Below, in pieces: positions 4,824-31,997 of a stretch of 64,000 nucleotides of DNA. The notes under the pieces were generated by a model. That model saw only the letters and a list, made by a program, of their open reading frames with translations, was not told the origin of the DNA and did no database searches. The position numbers were made by a program, and so were the translations under genes. The stretch is from the IMG/VR virus record IMGVR_UViG_2698536687_000001, one strand, 5' to 3'. This stretch comes from a virus (Duplodnaviria > Heunggongvirae > Uroviricota > Caudoviricetes). How positions within the stretch are numbered: the first letter of the stretch is position 1; each line of letters starts with the position of its first letter.

Positions 4824-7811
4824 ATGAGCTTAAGCGATCAGGTGGTAATGGCCACCAGCATAGAAACGCTGATCGAGCTGCTAAAGAACCTGCCCGATTA
4901 TGGGCGGGTTTCGTATGTGGTGACAGCGAAGGGAGACGAGGTAAAAACAGCGTTTGATATCGTCGATGCCTCAGTTCTTTTGGTATCCAATACTCTGGAT
5001 GGGAAAATTAATCCTGACTATCCCCAGGAACTTCAACCGCGCGACCGGACCCGCGCATCCAGCCTTCTTCAGGTTAACCAGATATCCAAAGATTTGCGGC
5101 CTGCTCAGCTTACTGATTCCGGTTTATCCAGCCATGGCGCGCCGATAATTGGTGAGGACAATGCCGTTGAGTCAGGTAATGGACGGACCATGGGGATCAT
5201 CAAAGCCTATCAGGACGGCAATGCGGATCGGTATCGTGAGTACCTGATTGATCATGCGACCGAATTCGGCATACGACCTGAAAAGGTTGAATCAATGACG
5301 GCTCCGGTACTGGTGCGCCGCCGGTTAACTAAGGTTGACCGCGTTCAGTTTGCCAAGGACTCAAATATTTCTGATCTTCAGGAAATGGCAGCCAGTGAAA
5401 AGGCTTTTGTTGATGCCGACAGCATAACACCGGCGATGATGGCGCTTTTTAACCCGTCAGAAAGCGGAGATCTGCTTAGCCGCAGTAATGACGCGTTTAT
5501 TCGCGGATTTATGACGCAAGTTGGTGCCACACAGGCGGCTGGCCTTGTAACGGAAGATGGGCGACCAACGCGGCAACTTGTTGACCGTATACAAAACGCG
5601 ATCTTTGCCAAGGCATATAAGGATGCGCGCCTGGTAAGGATGGTTGCAGAAGAACCTGATCCGGATATGCGTAATGTTCTGACGGCGCTTAATGCGGCAG
5701 CCAATGATTTTGTCCAGATGCAGGCTTTATCAGGAGAAGCGCACAAGCAGGCTGTGACAACTATTGTTGATGGCATTGAGACAGCGGATAGCCTCGATAA
5801 AAAGGCGCTGGCGGCATTGAAAGATGCGGTAGACCTGGTAAGGCAATCGAAGGAGTCAGGCCAACATATTACCGATGTTATTGCTCAGGGGGATATGTTC
5901 AGCGAAACAGCCCCGGAAGTGAAAGCTCTCGCGTTGTTCATCGTCGCGAATAACCGTAGCGCGAAGCGTATGGCCACCGCCTTTAAATTGATGGCTCAAC
6001 GTATCAATGATGAGTTACAGCACCAGTGCCAGGCGCTGGGGGATATGTTTGGCGGTGGTGATGTGTCGTTACAGGATATCCTTCGCCAGGTGTCTCAGGA
6101 ACTGGAAAACGAAGGCATGCAAGGGATATCCGGCGGTCTTTTCGAGTCCGTTTCCGGCGGTAGTTACAACGGTGTTGCTCCATATACCAGTTTGCTATTA
6201 CATCGGGCATCCGGCATCAAAGACATTATTCATCTGATCAGGCTGCTTTCCCGTACAGATCCCCAGGATGAACAGCTTGTACAAGTGCTTGCGCATTTTG
6301 TTCGAATGCCTGTTGCCGACGTGAAAAAATGGTGCCGATTATTCGGTATCAGCAATTCGTTACTTCGCGGCTTGTTAAATCACGCATCCTCCCTTGGGCG
6401 CGATGGCTTTGACGAGATAGCGCAGGCGATAAAAAACGGAGATATGCCACCAGCTATTGACTGGTTTTCCATTCGCCCAACCAGGGTGAAAGCATTCCTT
6501 AGCGCGGCGCATTCGGCATCACCATTGGCAGAAATGGTTCAGAGATTGTCGCTCATATTCACAGACCATACCGCGTTGGGTGATCTGACTCTGGACGAGA
6601 TGAAAGAAGCCTCCATTCAGTGGGCCGATCAACAAAATGAGGTTAACTCAGACTTCTTGCCAGCATTCAGGAAGGCCGTTAGTAAAGCGGATGATGCCCG
6701 TGGAATTCTGAAGGCATTTAAGGCATTGCAAAGTCGTGTTAATAAACATGTCGGTGATATCGATGGGGTAACGGCGGAAGGCCGGGATATTCTTAAAGAG
6801 CACGGCATAACACCAGAGTTTATTGATGAGATCAGGACGGATATGCAGCGTGAGGTCGTATCGTCCCTGCAAATTGTAGCCAGAGCGTTGGCGGATGCTA
6901 ATCCGAAGAGTGCGGCCATTGTTAACCGGGTTATTGGTGATATTGAAGCATCGGAGGGCATGGGGGCGCTGAAACTCTTCCTTTCGCGAGCGTTTAATCC
7001 TAACGGCAATATTCTCCCTGGCATTATTGGTGAGGCTAAAAAGTATGTCAGTGAAGAAGAACTTGAGCAGCTTGACCAACTACTTAAGCGATTCTCATAT
7101 AACCCGCAGACACGCTGGCAAATGAATCAGCGAAGTATGGGTTCGGTCCACGAGAAAGTGTTATCTGCCATGAACAGTGCGATCGCAAACTCATCCGTAT
7201 CTGAAGAAAAAGCTCTTGAGTGGGCCGACTCTTTTATCACGGAAGAAGTGGAAGAAGCTCGCGCTGGACAGAATGGTGGGATAGACCTGCGCAAGGAACT
7301 TGCTGATATTTATCGCCTGACCGGCGGGAAAATATCGACCTTATCAAAGGTAGTTCACCACCAGGGAAGGGCATATGCAAATCTAAATGGTGTTGTTGCT
7401 GTCAATTTGAACGATGAAAATGCAAGTGCACTGTGGCACGAGCTGGGTCATCATCTTGAGTACAGTAACCCTGGTTTGTTAGAGAAAGCCCGATCATTCC
7501 TGAAGGCCAATGTTGAAGGGGATAAGCCATCTTTCGTCAATATCGGTGGGCGTGGCAAGCCTGAATGGTGCTTCAGATCTCGATTGAGTAATATTTATAT
7601 GGCGAAGGTATACCCGCCAGTCTCAGTGAGTAACTCAGGGAAAATTCGGCAGAAATCACCGACTATTTCCAAAACGTCAGCAACGGAAGTATTCTCTATG
7701 GCTCTTCAGTTGTATCATGACAAAGAGGCCGCTGCCGCATCACTGATGAATGGTGACGGATTGCTGGAACTGTTATTAGGTGTGGCAAAGGAGCTAAATA
7801 ATGCAGATTAA
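4824..7811 (+). CDS. ddrB: DdrB-like large protein of the dar operon
   Basis: 995 aa ORF directly after ddrA; position and size as in P1. Confidence 0.6.
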   Translation: MSLSDQVVMATSIETLIELLKNLPDYGRVSYVVTAKGDEVKTAFDIVDASVLLVSNTLDGKINPDYPQELQPRDRTRASSLLQVNQISKDLRPAQLTDSGLSSHGAPIIGEDNAVESGNGRTMGIIKAYQDGNADRYREYLIDHATEFGIRPEKVESMTAPVLVRRRLTKVDRVQFAKDSNISDLQEMAASEKAFVDADSITPAMMALFNPSESGDLLSRSNDAFIRGFMTQVGATQAAGLVTEDGRPTRQLVDRIQNAIFAKAYKDARLVRMVAEEPDPDMRNVLTALNAAANDFVQMQALSGEAHKQAVTTIVDGIETADSLDKKALAALKDAVDLVRQSKESGQHITDVIAQGDMFSETAPEVKALALFIVANNRSAKRMATAFKLMAQRINDELQHQCQALGDMFGGGDVSLQDILRQVSQELENEGMQGISGGLFESVSGGSYNGVAPYTSLLLHRASGIKDIIHLIRLLSRTDPQDEQLVQVLAHFVRMPVADVKKWCRLFGISNSLLRGLLNHASSLGRDGFDEIAQAIKNGDMPPAIDWFSIRPTRVKAFLSAAHSASPLAEMVQRLSLIFTDHTALGDLTLDEMKEASIQWADQQNEVNSDFLPAFRKAVSKADDARGILKAFKALQSRVNKHVGDIDGVTAEGRDILKEHGITPEFIDEIRTDMQREVVSSLQIVARALADANPKSAAIVNRVIGDIEASEGMGALKLFLSRAFNPNGNILPGIIGEAKKYVSEEELEQLDQLLKRFSYNPQTRWQMNQRSMGSVHEKVLSAMNSAIANSSVSEEKALEWADSFITEEVEEARAGQNGGIDLRKELADIYRLTGGKISTLSKVVHHQGRAYANLNGVVAVNLNDENASALWHELGHHLEYSNPGLLEKARSFLKANVEGDKPSFVNIGGRGKPEWCFRSRLSNIYMAKVYPPVSVSNSGKIRQKSPTISKTSATEVFSMALQLYHDKEAAAASLMNGDGLLELLLGVAKELNNAD

Positions 7812-8109
7812 AATCGCAGCGCCATTAGGCGGAGATGCCATTATCGAATTTGATGATAATGAAGAAGTTTCCGGGCGTTTAAGCATTATCTCCGGTGACA
7901 TTACCGAGGACATGATCGCTGAAGCCATAGCTGGAGCAAATCCCAATAGCTATATGGGATTCGTTAACACCCTTGATGCTCCCGCAAGTGATGTTCTCCG
8001 AACGCTGCATCTTTACGCTGGCTGGTTTGTTGATTGGCCTGTTGTAGATGGTGGCGATGAGGACGACGACGATGATTTTGGTGATCATGTAGGTCAGAAT
8101 GTTTATTAA
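7801..8109 (+). CDS. Small acidic protein with poly-Asp tail, translationally coupled to ddrB
   Basis: 102 aa, start overlaps ddrB stop; C-terminal GGDEDDDDDFGDH. Confidence 0.4.
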   Translation: MQIKIAAPLGGDAIIEFDDNEEVSGRLSIISGDITEDMIAEAIAGANPNSYMGFVNTLDAPASDVLRTLHLYAGWFVDWPVVDGGDEDDDDDFGDHVGQNVY

Positions 8110-8279
8110 ATAGTATTAGTGTAAGCTTAATTAGCTATTTTTAAGGCACAAAATTTGTTTATTCTATAGACGGAGTTGTGCCTGATTTTATAATTAAATA
8201 TTTCTCGCGTGCTGTAATAAGTGAGAGTGTTAAATGGTAATACTGGTTGTCTTTAGCAAAAGCTTAAAAGGAAATATAA

Positions 8280-8714
8280 ATGAACTCTTCGTCAAAACAG
8301 GCGATCATAATTCATGATGTATTATGCCATTATTGTAAAACTCACTATGATAGTGATGTCATGGTATTAACTATTGAACAGGATGTTAATTCTGGGTGGA
8401 ATCTTCGTGGTAAAGGAGAAATCCATACTAAATGTTCATGTCCTGTCTGCGGAATGATGTATACTGCTGTAAAGAGAATGATACCTATTGAGTGTGATAG
8501 CTATTTATGTCCAACGTGTAATGAATCATCAAACCTTGAATATAATGTATACAAGATCGAACGAGTTCAAGATAGTAATGATTTTACATTTAAAGCTAAT
8601 ATAATATGTAAGAAATGTCACAATAAAAAAACATTGACTAAAGTCATCAAAAAAATCCTAAATATAAAGAGAATTGAAGTTAAACTTACAGGGATTACTA
8701 TTGAGAGATATTAG
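8280..8714 (+). CDS. Cysteine-rich putative double zinc-ribbon protein in an AT-rich islet
   Basis: 144 aa with CxxC/CxCxxC/CxxC/CxxC spacing; AAGGAAATATAAATG RBS; visibly lower GC than flanks. Confidence 0.5.
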   Translation: MNSSSKQAIIIHDVLCHYCKTHYDSDVMVLTIEQDVNSGWNLRGKGEIHTKCSCPVCGMMYTAVKRMIPIECDSYLCPTCNESSNLEYNVYKIERVQDSNDFTFKANIICKKCHNKKTLTKVIKKILNIKRIEVKLTGITIERY

Positions 8715-8819
8715 TGAATAATTTTGATAGGTATTTTATAGCTGGATTGTAATTTATAGCTGAATGTGATGAACATCGAATACAAGCAGGTAATAATCCC
8801 GCCAATCGGCGGGATTTTT

Positions 8820-9614
8820 TTAATCGCTTTCCACTTCTTCCGTGGTGTTTTCTTGCAGTTCTGTTAATGCAGCACGGCACAGGTTACGGGCATTGGCTAT
8901 AGCCACACTTTTTACCTCATCCGTCATTGTGCAGGTAATGTACTGATCGAGTTCTTCAGCTCGGATGATGCTTTTCCCAATCATAAACTCTATTTGCCAG
9001 AGCAGATCGGCATCCATCGTCAGTATTTCAGCCGGGCCTTCTGGGCCTGCGGGGAAGCAAACATAAGACTGTTTGCCCAGGCCGATAACTCGACAACTTG
9101 CTTCAAGAATTGCGCGCTTGAGGTCTGACTTTGTAACGGAAACAGGTTGATTTTCACCAGTGATTACGCCGTTGACATGGAAGTGGAAGGGCATGTAGCT
9201 TGAAATTCGCTCTACTTTCCATACGCCAGCAAGCGATCCTTCATGCAGCACAATGGGGGTAACCGCGAGTTTCATCTCACCATATAACTGCTGGCAGATA
9301 GCTGGATTGCTGAATACATCCAAAGGTTCACACTCAAACAGCGGCGCAATCTGCATGAGGTCCATCATGGTCATACCAGGGGTACGAGCAGTAATGAATC
9401 TGCGCATTCCAGTATCCATTGTGCGCCAGATAGCTACACCATGCTTTTTGCTCACTTCTTCAGTAAAGCCAAGGTGGCACATGATGGTTGTTTCGATAGC
9501 CAGATCGGAGATAGAAACCTTTTCGCCTGGCACTCCATCATTATTGATGGTCACTTCGACACTCTGGCCATTACGTAGGCGGTATTGAATGGTTTTAGTA
9601 TTTTGTGCTGTCAT
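8820..9614 (-). CDS. Hypothetical protein
   Basis: 264 aa from ATG at 9614 (MTAQNTK); the 304-aa six-frame ORF extends upstream of the likely start. Confidence 0.45.
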   Translation of the reverse strand: MTAQNTKTIQYRLRNGQSVEVTINNDGVPGEKVSISDLAIETTIMCHLGFTEEVSKKHGVAIWRTMDTGMRRFITARTPGMTMMDLMQIAPLFECEPLDVFSNPAICQQLYGEMKLAVTPIVLHEGSLAGVWKVERISSYMPFHFHVNGVITGENQPVSVTKSDLKRAILEASCRVIGLGKQSYVCFPAGPEGPAEILTMDADLLWQIEFMIGKSIIRAEELDQYITCTMTDEVKSVAIANARNLCRAALTELQENTTEEVESD

Positions 9615-9811
9615 AGTCTTTTCTCTGCTTAAAAACTGATGTATTGCGCCTTCAGGTGGGTCAGGAATGTTTTCCCACCAGCGAAAGCAATATCTCGGGG
9701 TGTTCTTTTCGTGAAAAGCGCGTGCCATTGCCAACTTTGGCGTTTTTTAGCGAGTTCGTGCTTTTGTCGGCGTCTGGACCACCGCTTTTCTTTCAGTCGT
9801 TTTTTACACAT

Positions 9812-10300
9812 TCAAAACGGAATATCGTCGTCAAAGTCCATTGGAGGTTCGTTATTGGCGTTGCTCTGAGGTTTACCGCCACCACTGTATTGCTGGTGGT
9901 TTTGAGGTTGGTTTGATTGCCCCCAGCCATTTGAGGACTGTGAATCGTCACGGCGAGCGCCGATCATTTGCATGGTGCCGCCCTGGCTGACGATAATTTC
10001 CGTCGTGTAACGTTCTACACCGGCGTCATCTGTCCACTTACGGGTTTTAAGTTTCCCTTCGATGTAGACCTGAGAGCCTTTTCGTAAATACTCACTCGCA
10101 ATTTCAGCAAGTTTTCCGAACAAAACTACTTTATGCCATTCTGTTTGCTCTTTCTGTTGGCCCGTTTGCTTGTCGCGCCATGATTCATTCGTTGCGATGC
10201 TGAGTTTTCCGACCGCGCCGCCATTTGGTATATACCTGATCTCCGGGTCTTGCCCCAGGGTACCAATCAGGATGACTTTGTTTACACCGCGTTGTGTCAC
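9812..10300 (-). CDS. ssb: Single-stranded DNA-binding protein
   Basis: 162 aa; OB-fold N-terminus ([18 protein letters not shown]), Gly/Gln-rich linker, acidic tail DFDDDIPF. Confidence 0.92.
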
Positions 10301-10319: not shown

Positions 10320-10336
10320 AAATTAATTAGAGCAAT
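10320..10336 (-). promoter_or_regulatory. C1-operator-like site upstream of ssb
   Basis: AAATTAATTAGAGCAAT, 16/17 to reverse complement of ATTGCTCTAATAAATTT. Confidence 0.55.
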
Positions 10337-10469
10337 AATGTATATCTTTGAAACGTAGCTAACAAGTGATTTGCATTATCCTGTGCCTTCTAAAGGGATC
10401 GAGTCAGTCGGTATTGGCTGTGAATGGGTGTTTGTCCTGGAGCGTAAAAAATTCGCTTATGAGGTCTTT

Positions 10470-22193: not shown

Positions 22194-25100
22194 TCAGAAG
22201 GTATACTTCACGCCCAACATTGCAGATGTGTCGTTATACCCTTTGTCACCGACTTGAACACCTACATTCCCCCACAGGTTCAGTCTGGAATTTATCTGCC
22301 CATCAACACCGGCTTTTATTTCTCCGATATTACGAGCACCGTCCTGATGTACCGTCACGCCATTCATTCGAGTACCAAAATCACGGGTGTTATGCAGCCA
22401 GTTCACTTCCACAAATGGGCTGAATTCCTGGGATTTGCCTTCATCTATACGACTGTGGCTTTTAATCCATGTTTTCACGCCCAGACGGGTACGGACATTA
22501 CCGTCTCCGGTGCTTTCAACACGGGTACCGTTGCTTTCGCGGTGTTCGTCCGCTTTAACACCCATCCAGATGACCTGAGCCTGAGGCTGGACATACCACT
22601 CATTCAAACCACCTTGGTTGCCCGTAAACTCTCCCGCCTTCCAGGTATAACCAGTTTCCAGTGATGCAGTAAGTCCTTTTGATTTCCAGGATTCACTCTG
22701 CAATCCATCACCTTTAACATAGTTATCAAACCAGCTGTACTGTGCCCAAGAGTCCAGGTAAGCTCCGTTATGTGTTTCATCATTGGCATACCAGGTAGCG
22801 TACAGCCCAGTGCTGTAACCATTCACACTACCTTTTGAACGATATCCTGTGCGCACAGATTCTGTATTGTTGTGGTCATTACCGTATCCGGCCATTAAGC
22901 CAAGATGCCAGCGATCCGTCTTATTCCAACCCCACTGTGCTATATCGCCGCCCAGTTGCATAACATAACGGTTGCTTTGTGTTTTTAGCTGGTTGCTTCC
23001 GTCGCGCCAGCGATTGTGTCCACCCTCATGACGCATCCACATGCTTGTAGTTTTCAACTCACCGGTAATCACATCGGTATACTGCATTTGCCCCTGACGT
23101 TCGTGTAGGCGAGTCACGAACATTGTATTTGCAGCAGCAATGTTTGCCGTATAGCTACCAGCTTCTGGGCGAAGATCATTGTCACCTGGTGTTGGGGTCG
23201 GATTTGGCACCGGGTCCGGGTTCGGAGTNNNNNNNNNNNNNNNNNNNNNNNNNNNNNNNNNNNNNNNNNNNNNNNNNNNNNNNNNNNNNGGTCCGGGTTC
23301 GGAGTTGGATTTTCAGGTTGTTTGCCACTAGTTAGGTACCAGTTGCCATTTTTATCACCTTGTCCCCGCCCAAGAGTGTAATCATAAGCACCAGCCGCAA
23401 TTCGCCCAACTTGTACAAAGTCACCGTTAGATTGACCATCAACCTGGATAATGTTGATGCCATTGAGTGTTTGTGCCCCAATACCACCAACATTGTTTAC
23501 GGAAACAAAGGTTTTACCCTCTGTATTTCCTTTTACAACCAACTTATCGATTGGAGAGGTGTCGTCACCAAGAACACCTGAAAAGTAGATATAGCCATTT
23601 TCGCCAGTATAATCACCATTAATTGTTAAAGTGTTTTTTGCATCGCTGCCCAAGTATATAGAGCCATTATTATTAAGATGAGCAACATCCGAATCGCTAA
23701 CCATATTCCAGATGCTGTTTTTAGCTAAATTAACAATGCCACCGTTATACGCGGTTCCAGTCCAGTTGGAATTTTCTAATGCCAGATTGGCAATGCTGTT
23801 ACTATCAGCGCGAATATCGCCATTAAAGGAAGTATTCTTGACTGTAACATCAACCTTCCCTCCCACACCAGCATCATTCCTGAATGAGGAAATAAATGTG
23901 CCGTTATTCTTAATCTGGCTGCTATCTAGCGTGGCGGAAATGACTCCACCCTTGGCATTGAAATTATACCCTTTTTCACTAATCATCACCCCATTCTCTT
24001 GGGTGAGCTCAATTTTGGCATTTTGGGCAACAAATACAGAATCAGCATTATTTCCTGATACGTGAATGGATGTATTATTACCACTAATAACGGTATAATC
24101 ATCACTGCCCCATATTCCATGAGCGTAATCTCCGCTTGTTGTAAGCGATGAAGCAGAACCAAGTGTAACTTTCGCACCTGTATTTGCTGTTACACCATAC
24201 GATTTCTGCCCTTTGGTTATTATTCGGGCTGTGCCGGTATTAACAGTCGCGTCATTTTGTGCGTTTATACCGTGTGAGCCAATACCGTCTGTATTAATAA
24301 CTATTTCTTCGACGCTAATATCAGTTTTTTTACCATGCCCCCACACACCTATCGACTGCTCACCAGATGTGGATATTGTGGATGTACCCGTCAGCTCCAC
24401 GCTTGAATCAGGTGCTGAGTCTGTAGCGGATGAGGCCGTAACATATATACCTTCGGCTGATGTACCGGTAGTTTTTATTGATACACTATCTCCAGTTATT
24501 AAACCACCATTACCACCTACAATCTGTATGGCTTTAGCCTGCTCTCCTGATGTTTCAAGAGATGCATTTACCCCTAGATTTATATTCCCATTATTAGAGA
24601 TAGTTACCGCATGAGCTTGTGTGCCAGAAGTCGTTGCCTGGAGTCCTTTAGATACAGAGATACTAGCGTTATTGCCATCTGCACGTAAACCATAGCCATT
24701 TTGGCCTGAAGTAGAAATATTGACATCAGTTAATTCAGCTAAGCCACCTGACGATGCAAATACTCCCCATGCTCCTGTTCCATCAGTTTTAATCTGCGTA
24801 TTTGTTAGTGAGACATAACCGTTATTTTCGGCAGATACGCCACGAGCTCCCCATGCTTGTGATGGTTTTTTATCCCCCAGAGTGGTAATAGTAGAGTCGC
24901 TAATCACTATGTTGCTATTTTTACCAGAGCTAACAATACCTCTGGCATTATATCCAGATGTAGTAACATTAACTTTGCTTAAGGTAGCCTGGCCTCCATT
25001 TAAAATAGAAACACCACTAGCGTTTACACCAGATGTGTTAATGTCGCCTTGTTCAACAGTTAGTGTTGATTTGTCAACATTAATTCCAGTTGCATTCATC

Positions 25101-25513
25101 CCACTTGTTGTAACTGACATACCATTAGCGATAGTCATTGAAGAATTATTGTCAAGTGAAATACCTGATGCGTTTTTTCCTTTTGTTGTTATTGCAATCC
25201 CACCTTGAGAGTTAAGCGCGGAATTGCTGGAGATATTAACTCCGTTTGCCTTATCACCTTCTGTAGATAAGGTAACTGTACCTTCGGTAGTTAGCTTCCC
25301 TGAATTTGTGATAGAAATTGCATACCCATCACTTCCTGTATTACTTCCTGTATCAATATCGATCTGTTCTTTTTTAACTTGAACAGTATTATCAATATCA
25401 ATAGGAGCAGTTGATGCGTAAGCGTTTGAAAATAATGCGCCGATTATTGCTGCCAGCATGGACAAACGAGGAGCCCCCTCTCTTGAAGAGCTATTATAAG
25501 CAGAAAGTGACAT
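22194..25513 (-). CDS. AIDA-I-type autotransporter adhesin (type Va), interrupted by an assembly gap in its PNPTP linker
   Basis: Signal peptide from MSLS (GAGG RBS), passenger with degenerate NxSG/TxSG repeats, C-terminal beta-barrel ending GVKYTF; the two six-frame ORFs are one gene split by the N-run. Confidence 0.8.
23229..23289. other. Assembly gap (61 N) within the proline-rich linker repeat of the autotransporter
   Basis: Run of N flanked by near-identical GGTCCGGGTTCGGAGT repeats. Confidence 0.99.
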
Positions 25514-26005
25514 AGGTAACCTCAAGATTATACATTATCGAACCAGTATTTTAGTTTGCTGGGTAATTATATTTTCGGAAACATTCATGCATTTTGCTGC
25601 ACAAATCTGAAAGATGATAAATAAGGAAGTTAAATAAATCAATTATTCGTTTTAAATAAATTTCAAACAAAAAAATTACCAAGCAAATATATGCAGGCAG
25701 CATGCGTTTTTACACAAAAAAAAACGCGAGGCATTGAATTTGTATTCAATATTGGCTATGAAAACAACATGGTGGTTTGATGGCTATTAATTTCTTTATT
25801 TATCACTTTTATGTTTATTATATATCTATTAAGAAGGTTAGTAATGAATAATTATATAAAGCTAGCAGCCTCCATTTGTAATTGGTTTTTATCGGTTGTT
25901 TTGGTTTGGTTTATTATGTGTTTAAAAAATGTGTTTGCTTTGTATGCAAGAATGTTTGATAGCCGCTTAAGTGGTAATTTTGGCTTTGGGATAATTAAAT
26001 ATAAG

Positions 26006-30191: not shown

Positions 30192-31043
30192 ATGATAAAT
30201 TATGTCTACGGCGAACAACTGTACCAGGAGTTCGTCAGCTTCAGGGATCTCTTTCTAAAAAAAGCTGTTGCACGCGCCCAACACGTTGATACAGCCAGCG
30301 ACGGTCGTCCTGTACGCCCGGTTGTCGTTCTACCGTTCAAAGAAACTGACAGCATTCAGGCTGAAATTGATAAATGGACTTTAATGGCGCGGGAACTGGA
30401 ACAGTACCCAGACCTCAATATCCCAAAGACTATTTTATATCCAGTGCCTAACATCCTTCGCGGTGTGCGCAAGGTTACAACTTATCAGACAGAAGCTGTG
30501 AACAGCGTCAACATGACCGCTGGCCGCATTATTCATCTGATTGATAAGGACATTCGCATCCAAAAAAGCGCGGGGATCAATGAGCACAGTGCGAAATACA
30601 TAGAGAACCTGGAAGCAACAAAAGAGCTAATGAGGCAGTACCCGGAGGATGAAAAATTCCGTATGCGCGTACACGGCTTTAGCGAAACAATGCTGCGCGT
30701 CCACTACATTTCCAGTAGCCCTAACTACAATGATGGTAAATCAGTTAGTTACCATGTGCCACTGTGTGGCGTGTTTATCTGCGATGAAACTCTCCGTGAT
30801 GGAATTATCATCAACGGTGAATTCGAAAAAGCAAAATTTAGCCTTTATGACTCCATAGAACCGATCATCTGCGACCGCTGGCCGCAAGCAAAAATATATC
30901 GCCTGGCAGATATTGAAAATGTAAAAAAACAAATTGCCATCACTCGCGAAGAGAAAAAGGTTAAGTCAGCCGCATCAGTTACGCGCAGCCGTAAAACCAA
31001 GAAGGGGCAGCCAGTAAACGACAACCCCGAAAGCGCGCAATAA
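30192..31043 (+). CDS. c1: C1 immunity repressor
   Basis: 283 aa beginning MINYVYGEQLYQEFVSFRDLFLKKAVARAQHVD, matching P1 C1 as recalled. Confidence 0.95.
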   Translation: MINYVYGEQLYQEFVSFRDLFLKKAVARAQHVDTASDGRPVRPVVVLPFKETDSIQAEIDKWTLMARELEQYPDLNIPKTILYPVPNILRGVRKVTTYQTEAVNSVNMTAGRIIHLIDKDIRIQKSAGINEHSAKYIENLEATKELMRQYPEDEKFRMRVHGFSETMLRVHYISSSPNYNDGKSVSYHVPLCGVFICDETLRDGIIINGEFEKAKFSLYDSIEPIICDRWPQAKIYRLADIENVKKQIAITREEKKVKSAASVTRSRKTKKGQPVNDNPESAQ

Positions 31044-31052
31044 ATTATGCCC

Positions 31053-31318
31053 NNNNNNNNNNNNNNNNNNNNNNNNNNNNNNNNNNNNNNNNNNNNNNNN
31101 NNNNNNNNNNNNNNNNNNNNNNNNNNNNNNNNNNNNNNNNNNNNNNNNNNNNNNNNNNNNNNNNNNNNNNNNNNNNNNNNNNNNNNNNNNNNNNNNNNNN
31201 NNNNNNNNNNNNNNNNNNNNNNNNNNNNNNNNNNNNNNNNNNNNNNNNNNNNNNNNNNNNNNNNNNNNNNNNNNNNNNNNNNNNNNNNNNNNNNNNNNNN
31301 NNNNNNNNNNNNNNNNNN
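31053..31318. other. Assembly gap (266 N)
   Basis: Run of N starting 9 nt after the c1 stop. Confidence 0.99.
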
Positions 31319-31997
31319 CCGGTTGCTGTTCTTTTTGTCGGAAGTAGCTGTCTTCCAGTTTTTCAAAGAATGCCCATGCCTGATCGGTTTCGAGCATTTT
31401 AGCGTGACGGGCAGCTCCTCGTTCTGTCCAGAGGATGAGAGAGCGCGCTTTGGGGGAGACTGGATTTTGTGAGTAGTTTAAAGCTACCCGCAAATTTTTC
31501 AGCTCATCGCCAATAACCTTGAAAAAGTGCTTCGCTTCAACAAAGCGTACTTTGTTCTCATGATGATTCTGGCGAATGCGAATCGCTTCTGTACCATACC
31601 CCTTAGCAAGAGTTTCGGTTGTTACGACACGCACTCCCTGCCACTCCAGAACGGGAATTTCATCCGGCTGATTCTGAACAACCACCAGTTCCGATTCCTG
31701 AACTGAAGGTGCATAAATTTTTTCTGATTTAACGTTAGTTGCTTTCATTCTGTGTGCCTCCTTGCGTGCTTCGGCTGCGACGGTTGCGTAATTCAGATGA
31801 CCCTGTTCGAGCAGGTATTCACGGATATCGGTTAGCAGAATGCGGTGAACCGCGTTTTTGTCCTTTCTCCGGTAAAGTTGTTTGGTGATCATGAAGTAGT
31901 TGGCAATAACGCCAGGTATATCCCTGGTACTGATACAGGCAGTGTGCTGTTCAATTGCCTCGATCATCTCTTCACGGGTAACTAACGATGTTCTCAT
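31319..31997 (-). CDS. ant: Antirepressor-like protein, copy 1 (variant allele, 3' part lost in the gap)
   Basis: First 132 aa identical to copy 2, then a diverged central segment; the six-frame ORF 30975-31997 reads through N-derived X residues. Confidence 0.6.

Follow-up and report, generated by a model that had tools for sequence, protein, structure and literature searches.

A horizontally acquired gene in the hxr–isaA hot spot of a P1-type phage-plasmid encodes a tandem CxxC protein with two predicted zinc sites and relatives fused to conflict-system domains

The 64,000-nucleotide stretch of the virus record IMGVR_UViG_2698536687_000001 that was analysed here, in the following called the window, is a P1-type phage-plasmid in which ddrB, hxr, an isaA-like open reading frame (ORF), ssb and lyz are arranged in the same order as in P1. 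P1-like phage-plasmids are common in Escherichia coli and possess a few hot spots that are known to harbour resistance and accessory genes. The backbone genes from ddrB to lyz have 95–98% identity to those of P1 relatives, and between hxr and the isaA-like ORF lies an AT-rich islet that contains a gene for a protein of 144 amino acids (aa) with four pairs of cysteines in CxxC motifs. The locus comprises the following features:

Positions 4824–7811: ddrB, taken from the ORF list
Positions 7801–8109, plus strand: hxr, left flank of the islet and part of the P1 backbone (PHROG 2292 at 2e-57; annotated as Hxr in P1 relatives)
Positions 8111–8794, no strand assigned: AT-rich cargo islet of 684 bp that separates the hxr stop codon from the backbone terminator, with borders from blastn
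Positions 8167–8194, plus strand: predicted sigma-70-like promoter TAGACG-16 nt-TATAAT (consensus scan, 10 of 12 positions)
Positions 8268–8272, plus strand: Shine-Dalgarno-like AAGGA, 7 nt 5' of the ATG, read from the sequence
Positions 8280–8714, plus strand: coding region of the tandem CxxC...CxxC protein of 144 aa, for which two zinc sites are predicted (ORF, relatives, conserved cysteines, AlphaFold2 (AF2) model and duplication)
Positions 8731–8765, plus strand: two direct repeats of 17 nt, GTATTTTATAGCTGGAT and GTAATTTATAGCTGAAT, between stop codon and terminator (repeat search)
Positions 8795–8816, plus strand: G+C-rich hairpin with T run, the backbone terminator between the convergent hxr and isaA genes, used by the cargo gene according to the terminator scan
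Positions 8820–9734, minus strand: isaA-like ORF, right flank of the islet and part of the P1 backbone (PHROG 2326 at 1.9e-149; 98.5% DNA identity to P1 isaA)
Positions 9812–10300, minus strand: ssb, with lyz as the next gene

The borders of the islet were set by blastn against other P1 relatives and against the empty site of SJ46, where the equivalents of window positions 8110 and 8795 are separated by 2 nt and the hxr stop codon is followed by the hairpin. With a G+C content of 0.301, compared to 0.474 for the window and 0.46–0.47 for both flanks, the islet is indeed more AT-rich than its surroundings, as had been stated in a first-pass annotation of the locus made without database searches. 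This value lies about 3.7 standard deviations under the mean of all 684-bp segments of the window, 0.9% of which are equally low, some of them owing to masked runs of N. Such runs are located at about 23114–23180 and about 30900–31320, appear as X in the translated ORFs and artificially depress the G+C content around 30.6–31.1 kb in the composition scan. The islet contains a single conserved ORF, at 8280–8714. A repeat search detected neither terminal inverted repeats nor target duplications at the islet borders, and the insertion probably occurred by recombination in the conserved flanks. An Rfam scan of positions 7900–9000 yielded sub-threshold chance matches only. The islet is horizontally acquired cargo, a so-called moron, in the known hypervariable slot between hxr and isaA. 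Its foreign origin is indicated by the G+C content of 0.30 versus 0.47 and by the occurrence of the relatives with 55–65% identity in a Providencia prophage and metagenomic contigs. In the relative on contig L012, the gene is likewise AT-rich against a flank with a G+C content of 0.58–0.62.

The content of the slot varies among P1 relatives. P1 itself (NC_005856) carries isaB, on the opposite strand, and IS1 in the hxr–isaA interval, and the first-pass annotation had thus correctly placed an IS1 element at this position of P1. In Ro157c2YLVW, the slot is occupied by unrelated DNA of about 760 bp that contains an ORF of 95 aa, and in MH422554 by a 364-aa ORF positioned after the hairpin. The hairpin is common to SJ46, Ro157c2YLVW, MH422554 and RCS47, and cargo is found either on its hxr side, as in the window and Ro157c2YLVW, or on its isaA side, as in MH422554. 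Because cargo occurs on either side, the hairpin marks the recombination joint of the hot spot. In CP116245, CP080059 and Ro157c2YLVW, a DUF2829 gene is located between isaA and ssb, which is absent from the window and from P1 (comparison of window positions 9734–9812 with L001 5511–6188), so that the variability of the hot spot extends to its isaA side. That the slot exists, is AT-rich and contains the ORF has already been published. The slot was described as region of difference RD-2 (PMC6906374) and as variable region 2, for which a low G+C content was noted (PMC9603915). In pTZ20_1P, RD-2 was reported to contain functionally uncharacterised ORFs, with one of them in place of isaB (PMC6906374), and this appears to be the ORF of the window, if pTZ20_1P is taken as MN510447 (130,134 bp). 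The window agrees with these descriptions in the location of the slot between hxr and isaA, its low G+C content and a content that differs from relative to relative. Its copy of the slot deviates from them in that it contains neither a resistance gene nor an insertion sequence (IS), and in that its protein is unrelated to P1 IsaB. The cargo in this case is instead a member of a predicted zinc-binding family of about 200 sequence clusters.

The islet is rare. Its DNA was detected in 8 of 72,556 PLSDB plasmids, full length in two of them including MN510447, and in 6 of 5,426 complete E. coli genomes, every time on a plasmid. A few metagenome and Logan contigs also contain the islet, all of them in the same P1 context. 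The 50,697 phage records lack it, also when searched with the sensitivity of blastn.

Within the islet, the cargo gene forms a self-contained unit consisting of a predicted promoter of its own, a Shine-Dalgarno site, the 144-aa ORF and the hairpin terminator provided by the backbone. Between positions 8100 and 8300 no C1 operator was found, compared to 14 operator-like sites in the window, where 0.3 would be expected by chance. An LPlyz-like late promoter was not found in the same interval either, which is a weak negative as the search pattern derives from a single P1 example. The sigma-70-type promoter together with the lack of a C1 operator and of a late promoter suggests that the gene is expressed in the lysogen. 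The terminator scan predicted no terminator between hxr and the cargo gene. The two 17-nt repeats downstream of the stop codon are identical in 15 of 17 positions, spaced 18 nt start to start, and could represent a protein-binding site.

Translation of the ORF confirmed the four CxxC-type pairs given in the first-pass annotation: the protein contains ten cysteines, eight of which form the pairs C16/19, C54/57, C77/80 and C110/113. These pairs are invariant or nearly so across 62–68 distant relatives and can therefore not be attributed to chance; W40, G44, P69 and F104 are also conserved in the family. The description as a double CxxC...CxxC unit was likewise substantiated, because residues 12–73 and 74–128 were aligned to each other by hhalign with a probability of 95% and an E-value of 3.5e-8, identifying the domain as an internal duplication in which CxxC, hairpin and CxxC of one half pair with the same elements of the other half. 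This arrangement would most simply correspond to one zinc ion per half and two predicted sites in total, with a likewise predicted pairing of the cysteines. The AF2 model calculated from a 68-sequence alignment had a predicted local distance difference test score (pLDDT) of 86.8 and a predicted template modelling score (pTM) of 0.70; the confident model was obtained only with the 68 sequences, as a 5-sequence alignment gave a pLDDT of 49.5. In the model, a hairpin (residues 24–49), a helix (59–71), a second hairpin (86–110), a second helix (111–127) and a third hairpin (129–143) follow one another, and the second CxxC of each half runs directly into a helix. Motif spacing and modelled secondary structure would fit a classical zinc ribbon twice over, and each half shares with zinc-ribbon modules the succession of CxxC, long β-hairpin and CxxC. 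Unlike in an isolated zinc ribbon, the two units are joined in the model to a single α/β domain, which includes two helices and one further hairpin at the C-terminus and is reminiscent of ribosomal protein eS24.

Searches of Pfam, PHROG, NCBIfam, PADLOC and PDB sequences with the protein gave no match above threshold. A curated zinc-ribbon profile was not reached, with DUF7836 as the best candidate (20.9 bits versus a cut-off of 26.7) and none in NCBIfam; sub-threshold matches were to DUF7836, Zn_ribbon_8 and HVO_2753-type fingers. PADLOC-DB 2.0 contained chance-level matches only (E about 0.004–0.005), to zinc-finger stretches of Cas7 and Cas10. P1 IsaB is unrelated, with a BLASTP E-value of 0.048 in a single-pair comparison, and no transposase family in Pfam or NCBIfam was matched. 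Homology to an IS-associated or housekeeping protein, which the first-pass annotation had named as evidence against its proposal, was thus found neither in Pfam, PHROG and NCBIfam nor in the comparison with IsaB. Characterised anti-defence proteins (Dar proteins, Ocr/Ard, Tad sponges and others) were also not recovered, neither as significant PHROG or Pfam matches nor as BFVD structural matches at E≤0.001, in searches that included no profile library dedicated to anti-defence.

The closest solved fold, found by two methods, is eS24 (S24e), with a query-normalised TM-score of 0.45 and 7–14% sequence identity. As eS24 is an rRNA-binding protein, an RNA- or DNA-binding regulator of plasmid or host gene expression, with the eS24-like fold and a basic C-terminal helix and no role in conflicts, is a serious rival to the interpretation developed below, albeit an unlikely one. 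The basic character of the protein would fit such a function: residues 114–144 carry a net charge of +7, the isoelectric point (pI) is 8.8 and the family median pI is 8.4. In addition, one member of the family has an Xre-type helix-turn-helix (HTH) domain in front of the module, and weak sub-threshold similarity connects the protein to zinc-ribbon RNA-binding proteins and to RNA polymerase subunit M. However, the fold similarity is moderate, eS24 has no zinc sites and occurs in another context, and no match to S24e was obtained in Pfam or PDB sequence searches, so that the relation is one of fold resemblance only. Every sequence match pointing to a regulator was above an E-value of 0.003, fusions to TIR, LRR and EAD11 domains are atypical of plain regulators, and no binding site is known, for which the 17-nt repeats are not evidence. 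Among close homologues with 55–65% overall identity, the C-terminal end is the best conserved part, with 16 of the last 20 residues invariant, and the conserved basic tail suggests an interaction surface.

In six of the eight PLSDB carriers of the islet, the ORF is split by an IS10-type element (ISVsa5) with a 9-bp duplication of positions 8486–8494. The insertion site is base-identical in L002 (4390/5720) and L003 (4163/4932), and the BLAST endpoints agree in the other four plasmids, so that the six insertions probably go back to one ancestral event. Plasmid pE6474.2 has an additional IS1 between promoter and Shine-Dalgarno site with a 9-bp duplication of positions 8259–8267; beyond the IS1, cueO and a further rearrangement were observed. 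A putative second allele at 89.7% identity in tblastn turned out to be an alignment artefact, as the IS10-split copies are about 99% identical to the window on both sides of the insertion. The islet attracts insertion sequences, as the IS1 in the P1 slot had already suggested, and IS-disrupted copies of the gene persist in complete plasmids. From the persistence of the IS10-split copies it follows that the gene is dispensable for the plasmid.

The landing of IS10 and IS1 in the islet and its rarity among PLSDB plasmids and E. coli genomes would also be expected if the ORF was a functionless hitch-hiker, i.e. a decaying remnant or a spurious ORF in AT-rich junk that serves as landing pad for insertion sequences. 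We regard this as very unlikely, since the ORF is intact in the window and is equipped with promoter-like and Shine-Dalgarno sites as well as a terminator, and since about 207 clusters across phyla share the eight conserved cysteines and a confident fold. Furthermore, an allele with 97% identity differs from the window gene by seven synonymous and four nonsynonymous codon differences, and this excess of synonymous changes is consistent with purifying selection, albeit with small numbers. Taken together, the predicted promoter and terminator, the G+C content of 0.30 versus 0.47, the absence from P1, SJ46 and other relatives and the persistence of disrupted copies are the properties by which morons are recognised.

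The protein belongs to an uncatalogued family, and as far as the searched libraries and papers show, the family, its fold and its fusions are undescribed. A word-indexed search of 5.8 billion proteins returned four clusters, namely the 97% allele and three homologues with 55–63% identity (Providencia rettgeri and two Logan assemblies), and a profile version of this search added three. With an exhaustive HMMER profile search, about 207 cluster representatives were found at E≤1e-3, 129 of them at ≤1e-10. Among 153 family proteins, 99 were free-standing and full length, 34 were fragments, 19 had at least 60 aa of additional N-terminal sequence and one had a C-terminal extension. Most members are thus free-standing proteins of about 145 aa, and where the context could be read it was a bacterial chromosome, a plasmid or a prophage. 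With the window protein as query, tblastn returned no relative from the 50,697 phage genomes, although it did recover copies in Streptomyces at 27–31% identity. When an hmmemit consensus was used as query, tblastn found nothing in phages or plasmids, which is uninformative because real plasmid members were missed, too, probably owing to low-complexity masking of the K/E-rich consensus. In IMG/VR, one contig with a relative was found, and the BFVD structural search gave no match. Searches for related loci additionally yielded one locus in a metagenome-assembled genome (MAG) of a Gemmatimonadaceae bacterium and seven metagenome loci, three of which are the same P1-like islet and two the same MAG locus. 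The contexts outside the P1-like islet are:

Providencia prophage end: module gene preceded by an integrase-like and followed by a PemK-like gene
L012: SIR2_2 gene downstream (1.3e-17) on a truncated contig
L007: CbeA/DUF4942 island
L013 (IMGVR_UViG_3300046543_000497): high-GC viral contig with TrfA, ParA, ATP-dependent DNA ligase and tail fibre genes
L022: ORC/CDC6-like ATPase gene nearby
Gemmatimonadaceae MAG (L016/L024/L025): genes for ABC permease, GNAT and glyoxalase proteins
Two linear plasmids of Streptomyces: copies lacking annotation, with IS elements and ParAB around them (L014 4875–5327 and L015 4923–5384)

No neighbouring gene of the family members was conserved in any context examined. 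The Providencia rettgeri cassette (L004 195–2495, also L005 and L006) lies at a prophage end adjoining tail-fibre genes and contains a gene for a 408-aa integrase-like protein that matches the catalytic domain weakly, the gene of the zinc module and a PemK/MazF-like gene, which is preceded by a promoter of its own and by no obvious antitoxin ORF. L013 may be a phage-plasmid by its combination of TrfA-type replication, ParA, ligase and tail-fibre genes; its member of the family has 193–207 aa and shares about 40% overall identity with the E. coli protein, but its C-terminal motif KKIEIKLTGITIER is nearly the same as in the latter. The Streptomyces members have 150–153 aa and are missing from the PLSDB gene tables. 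Their third cysteine pair reads CSQSH or CSQGH in place of CxxC, and the second metal site may be altered.

Two of these contexts could indicate that the protein is the antitoxin or partner of an adjacent toxic effector of the PemK/MazF or SIR2 type and was orphaned in the P1-like plasmid, since the PemK-like gene is the next gene downstream in the Providencia prophage loci (26.5 bits versus a cut-off of 23.1) and the SIR2_2 protein is encoded by the next gene in L012. We consider this explanation extremely improbable, because each pairing is limited to one lineage and because no such neighbour is present in the window, in L007, L013, L016 or L022, or on the Streptomyces plasmids. Even in Providencia, the module gene and the PemK-like gene do not form an operon, as the 150 nt that separate them contain a hairpin and an additional promoter, TTGTTA-17-TATAAT. 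The islet itself contains no toxin-like ORF. A PemI/MazE-type antitoxin in particular was rejected, as no toxin gene accompanies the cargo gene and the PemK-like gene of Providencia is a separate transcription unit.

A more general hint to the function of the module comes from its fusions. In 8 of 62 scanned members it is located C-terminal to a TIR_2 domain, and further members carry it behind LRR (P0023), EAD11 (P0071) or Xre-type HTH (P0056) domains; six additional full-length clusters of TIR fusions were also found. The TIR parts match PADLOC profiles of the ThsB type at up to 7e-53. Elsewhere, the same TIR is joined to TPR, WD40, FGE-sulfatase, CHAT, AAA and EAD domains, and a TIR-EAD11 protein (P0265) among the TIR relatives closes a fusion triangle between TIR, EAD11 and the module. 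The same TIR architecture is that of the NTP-dependent conflict systems of Kaur et al. 2020 (PMC7159879), in which the zinc module is not described. The module thus fills the variable C-terminal position of ThsB-type TIR and TIR-EAD/TPR/WD40 proteins and occurs in EAD11 fusions as well. In conflict and regulatory proteins, the C-terminal slot is usually occupied by a sensor, adaptor or oligomerisation module. In contrast to TIR immune proteins, the window protein has neither a TIR nor an effector domain. A Thoeris system was rejected for the same reason, and no ThsA (SIR2/Macro plus SLOG) is encoded in the window or beside the four TIR-fusion genes whose surroundings could be placed.

The first-pass annotation had proposed that small zinc-ribbon proteins in such slots are frequently anti-defence or regulatory factors. 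In its loosest form this is supported by the fusions to TIR, EAD11, LRR and HTH domains; an anti-defence function specifically is neither shown nor favoured by our analysis. An anti-defence factor could be a decoy or dominant-negative version of the sensor domain directed against TIR immune proteins, or an extra member of the Dar anti-restriction system. A free copy of a domain that forms the C-terminal part of TIR proteins matching ThsB-type models would be a plausible decoy, and the gene directly follows ddrB and hxr on their strand without a predicted terminator separating it from them, so that late dar transcripts could include it. However, tblastn with the window protein found no relative among the phage genomes and IMG/VR contributed one contig, the protein has neither a BFVD structural match nor a PHROG family, and a sigma-70-like promoter is predicted for its gene, upstream of which neither a late promoter nor a C1 operator was found. 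Most family members are free-standing, several of those that could be placed are chromosomal or lie on non-phage plasmids, the TIR fusions that we found stem from soil metagenomes with none seen in Enterobacterales, the close relatives from which are all free-standing, and the gene is split by IS10 in six of eight PLSDB carriers. We rate this possibility lower, as quite unlikely, because the family is nearly absent from phages, enterobacterial TIR fusions were not found and disrupted copies persist.

The interpretation that we favour, and that we regard as evenly poised between right and wrong, is that the islet contributes a cargo gene that was acquired horizontally, is probably expressed in the lysogen and encodes a zinc-dependent binding module with a link to conflict or regulation. 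As the module has no catalytic signature, it would probably act by zinc-dependent binding rather than catalysis, and the link to conflict or regulation is suggested by the recurrent fusion of the domain to TIR, EAD11, LRR and HTH. The free-standing version of the P1-type plasmid would probably be expressed constitutively in the lysogen instead of being part of the late or the C1-controlled programme. The protein would most likely bind a nucleic acid or a protein ligand and thereby modulate conflicts in which other mobile elements are opposed to the element or its host. Free-standing members have no partner gene conserved beside them, which speaks for an autonomous function. Protection of the lysogen or regulation in the sense of lysogenic conversion is more likely than an injected counter-defence protein.

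Several observations weigh against this interpretation. To conclude from the fusion partners on a sensor or adaptor role would be guilt by association, and the fusions are a minority, with 99 of 153 members being free-standing. The four placeable TIR-fusion genes are solitary among housekeeping genes, 4 of 4 without a ThsA-like or SIR2 partner. Several of the free-standing proteins are encoded among ordinary genes, as in the Gemmatimonadaceae MAG, unlike in a defence island. With regard to expression, promoter-like matches in the region are no more frequent than expected from shuffled sequence, and the lack of a terminator behind hxr makes read-through from a late dar/hxr transcript possible. 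Finally, the IS10 split shared by six plasmids shows that there is no strong selection to keep the ORF.

A more far-reaching version, which we consider decidedly unlikely, would be that the module is the ligand sensor of a new single-protein class of TIR immune systems and that the free P1 copy is an exclusion factor or a decoy that blinds such sensors. As exclusion factor, the protein would sequester an invader's nucleic acid or protein without an effector. If the sensor-module reading were true, the module would represent a new immune or counter-immune family that could be tested directly by P1 genetics in E. coli. Being one small gene in a genetically tractable element and host, the P1 copy offers a convenient route to the ligand of the module, knowledge of which would aid the annotation of the TIR-fused versions in soil bacteria. 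If no phenotype were found, the gene would be one more orphan moron, and the AT-rich slot would simply collect foreign DNA and insertion sequences.

Outside the islet, a second AT-rich segment with a G+C content of about 0.31–0.36 at 25.0–25.7 kb coincides with an ORF of 803 aa (window 23114–25525, minus strand) that contains Gly/Ser/Thr/Asn repeats, resembles an autotransporter or β-helix passenger domain and probably represents more cargo. Between ssb and lyz, as in P1, the window contains the C1 operator Ossb with one mismatch to the consensus (10320–10336) and an exact copy of the P1 late promoter LPlyz (10364–10382).

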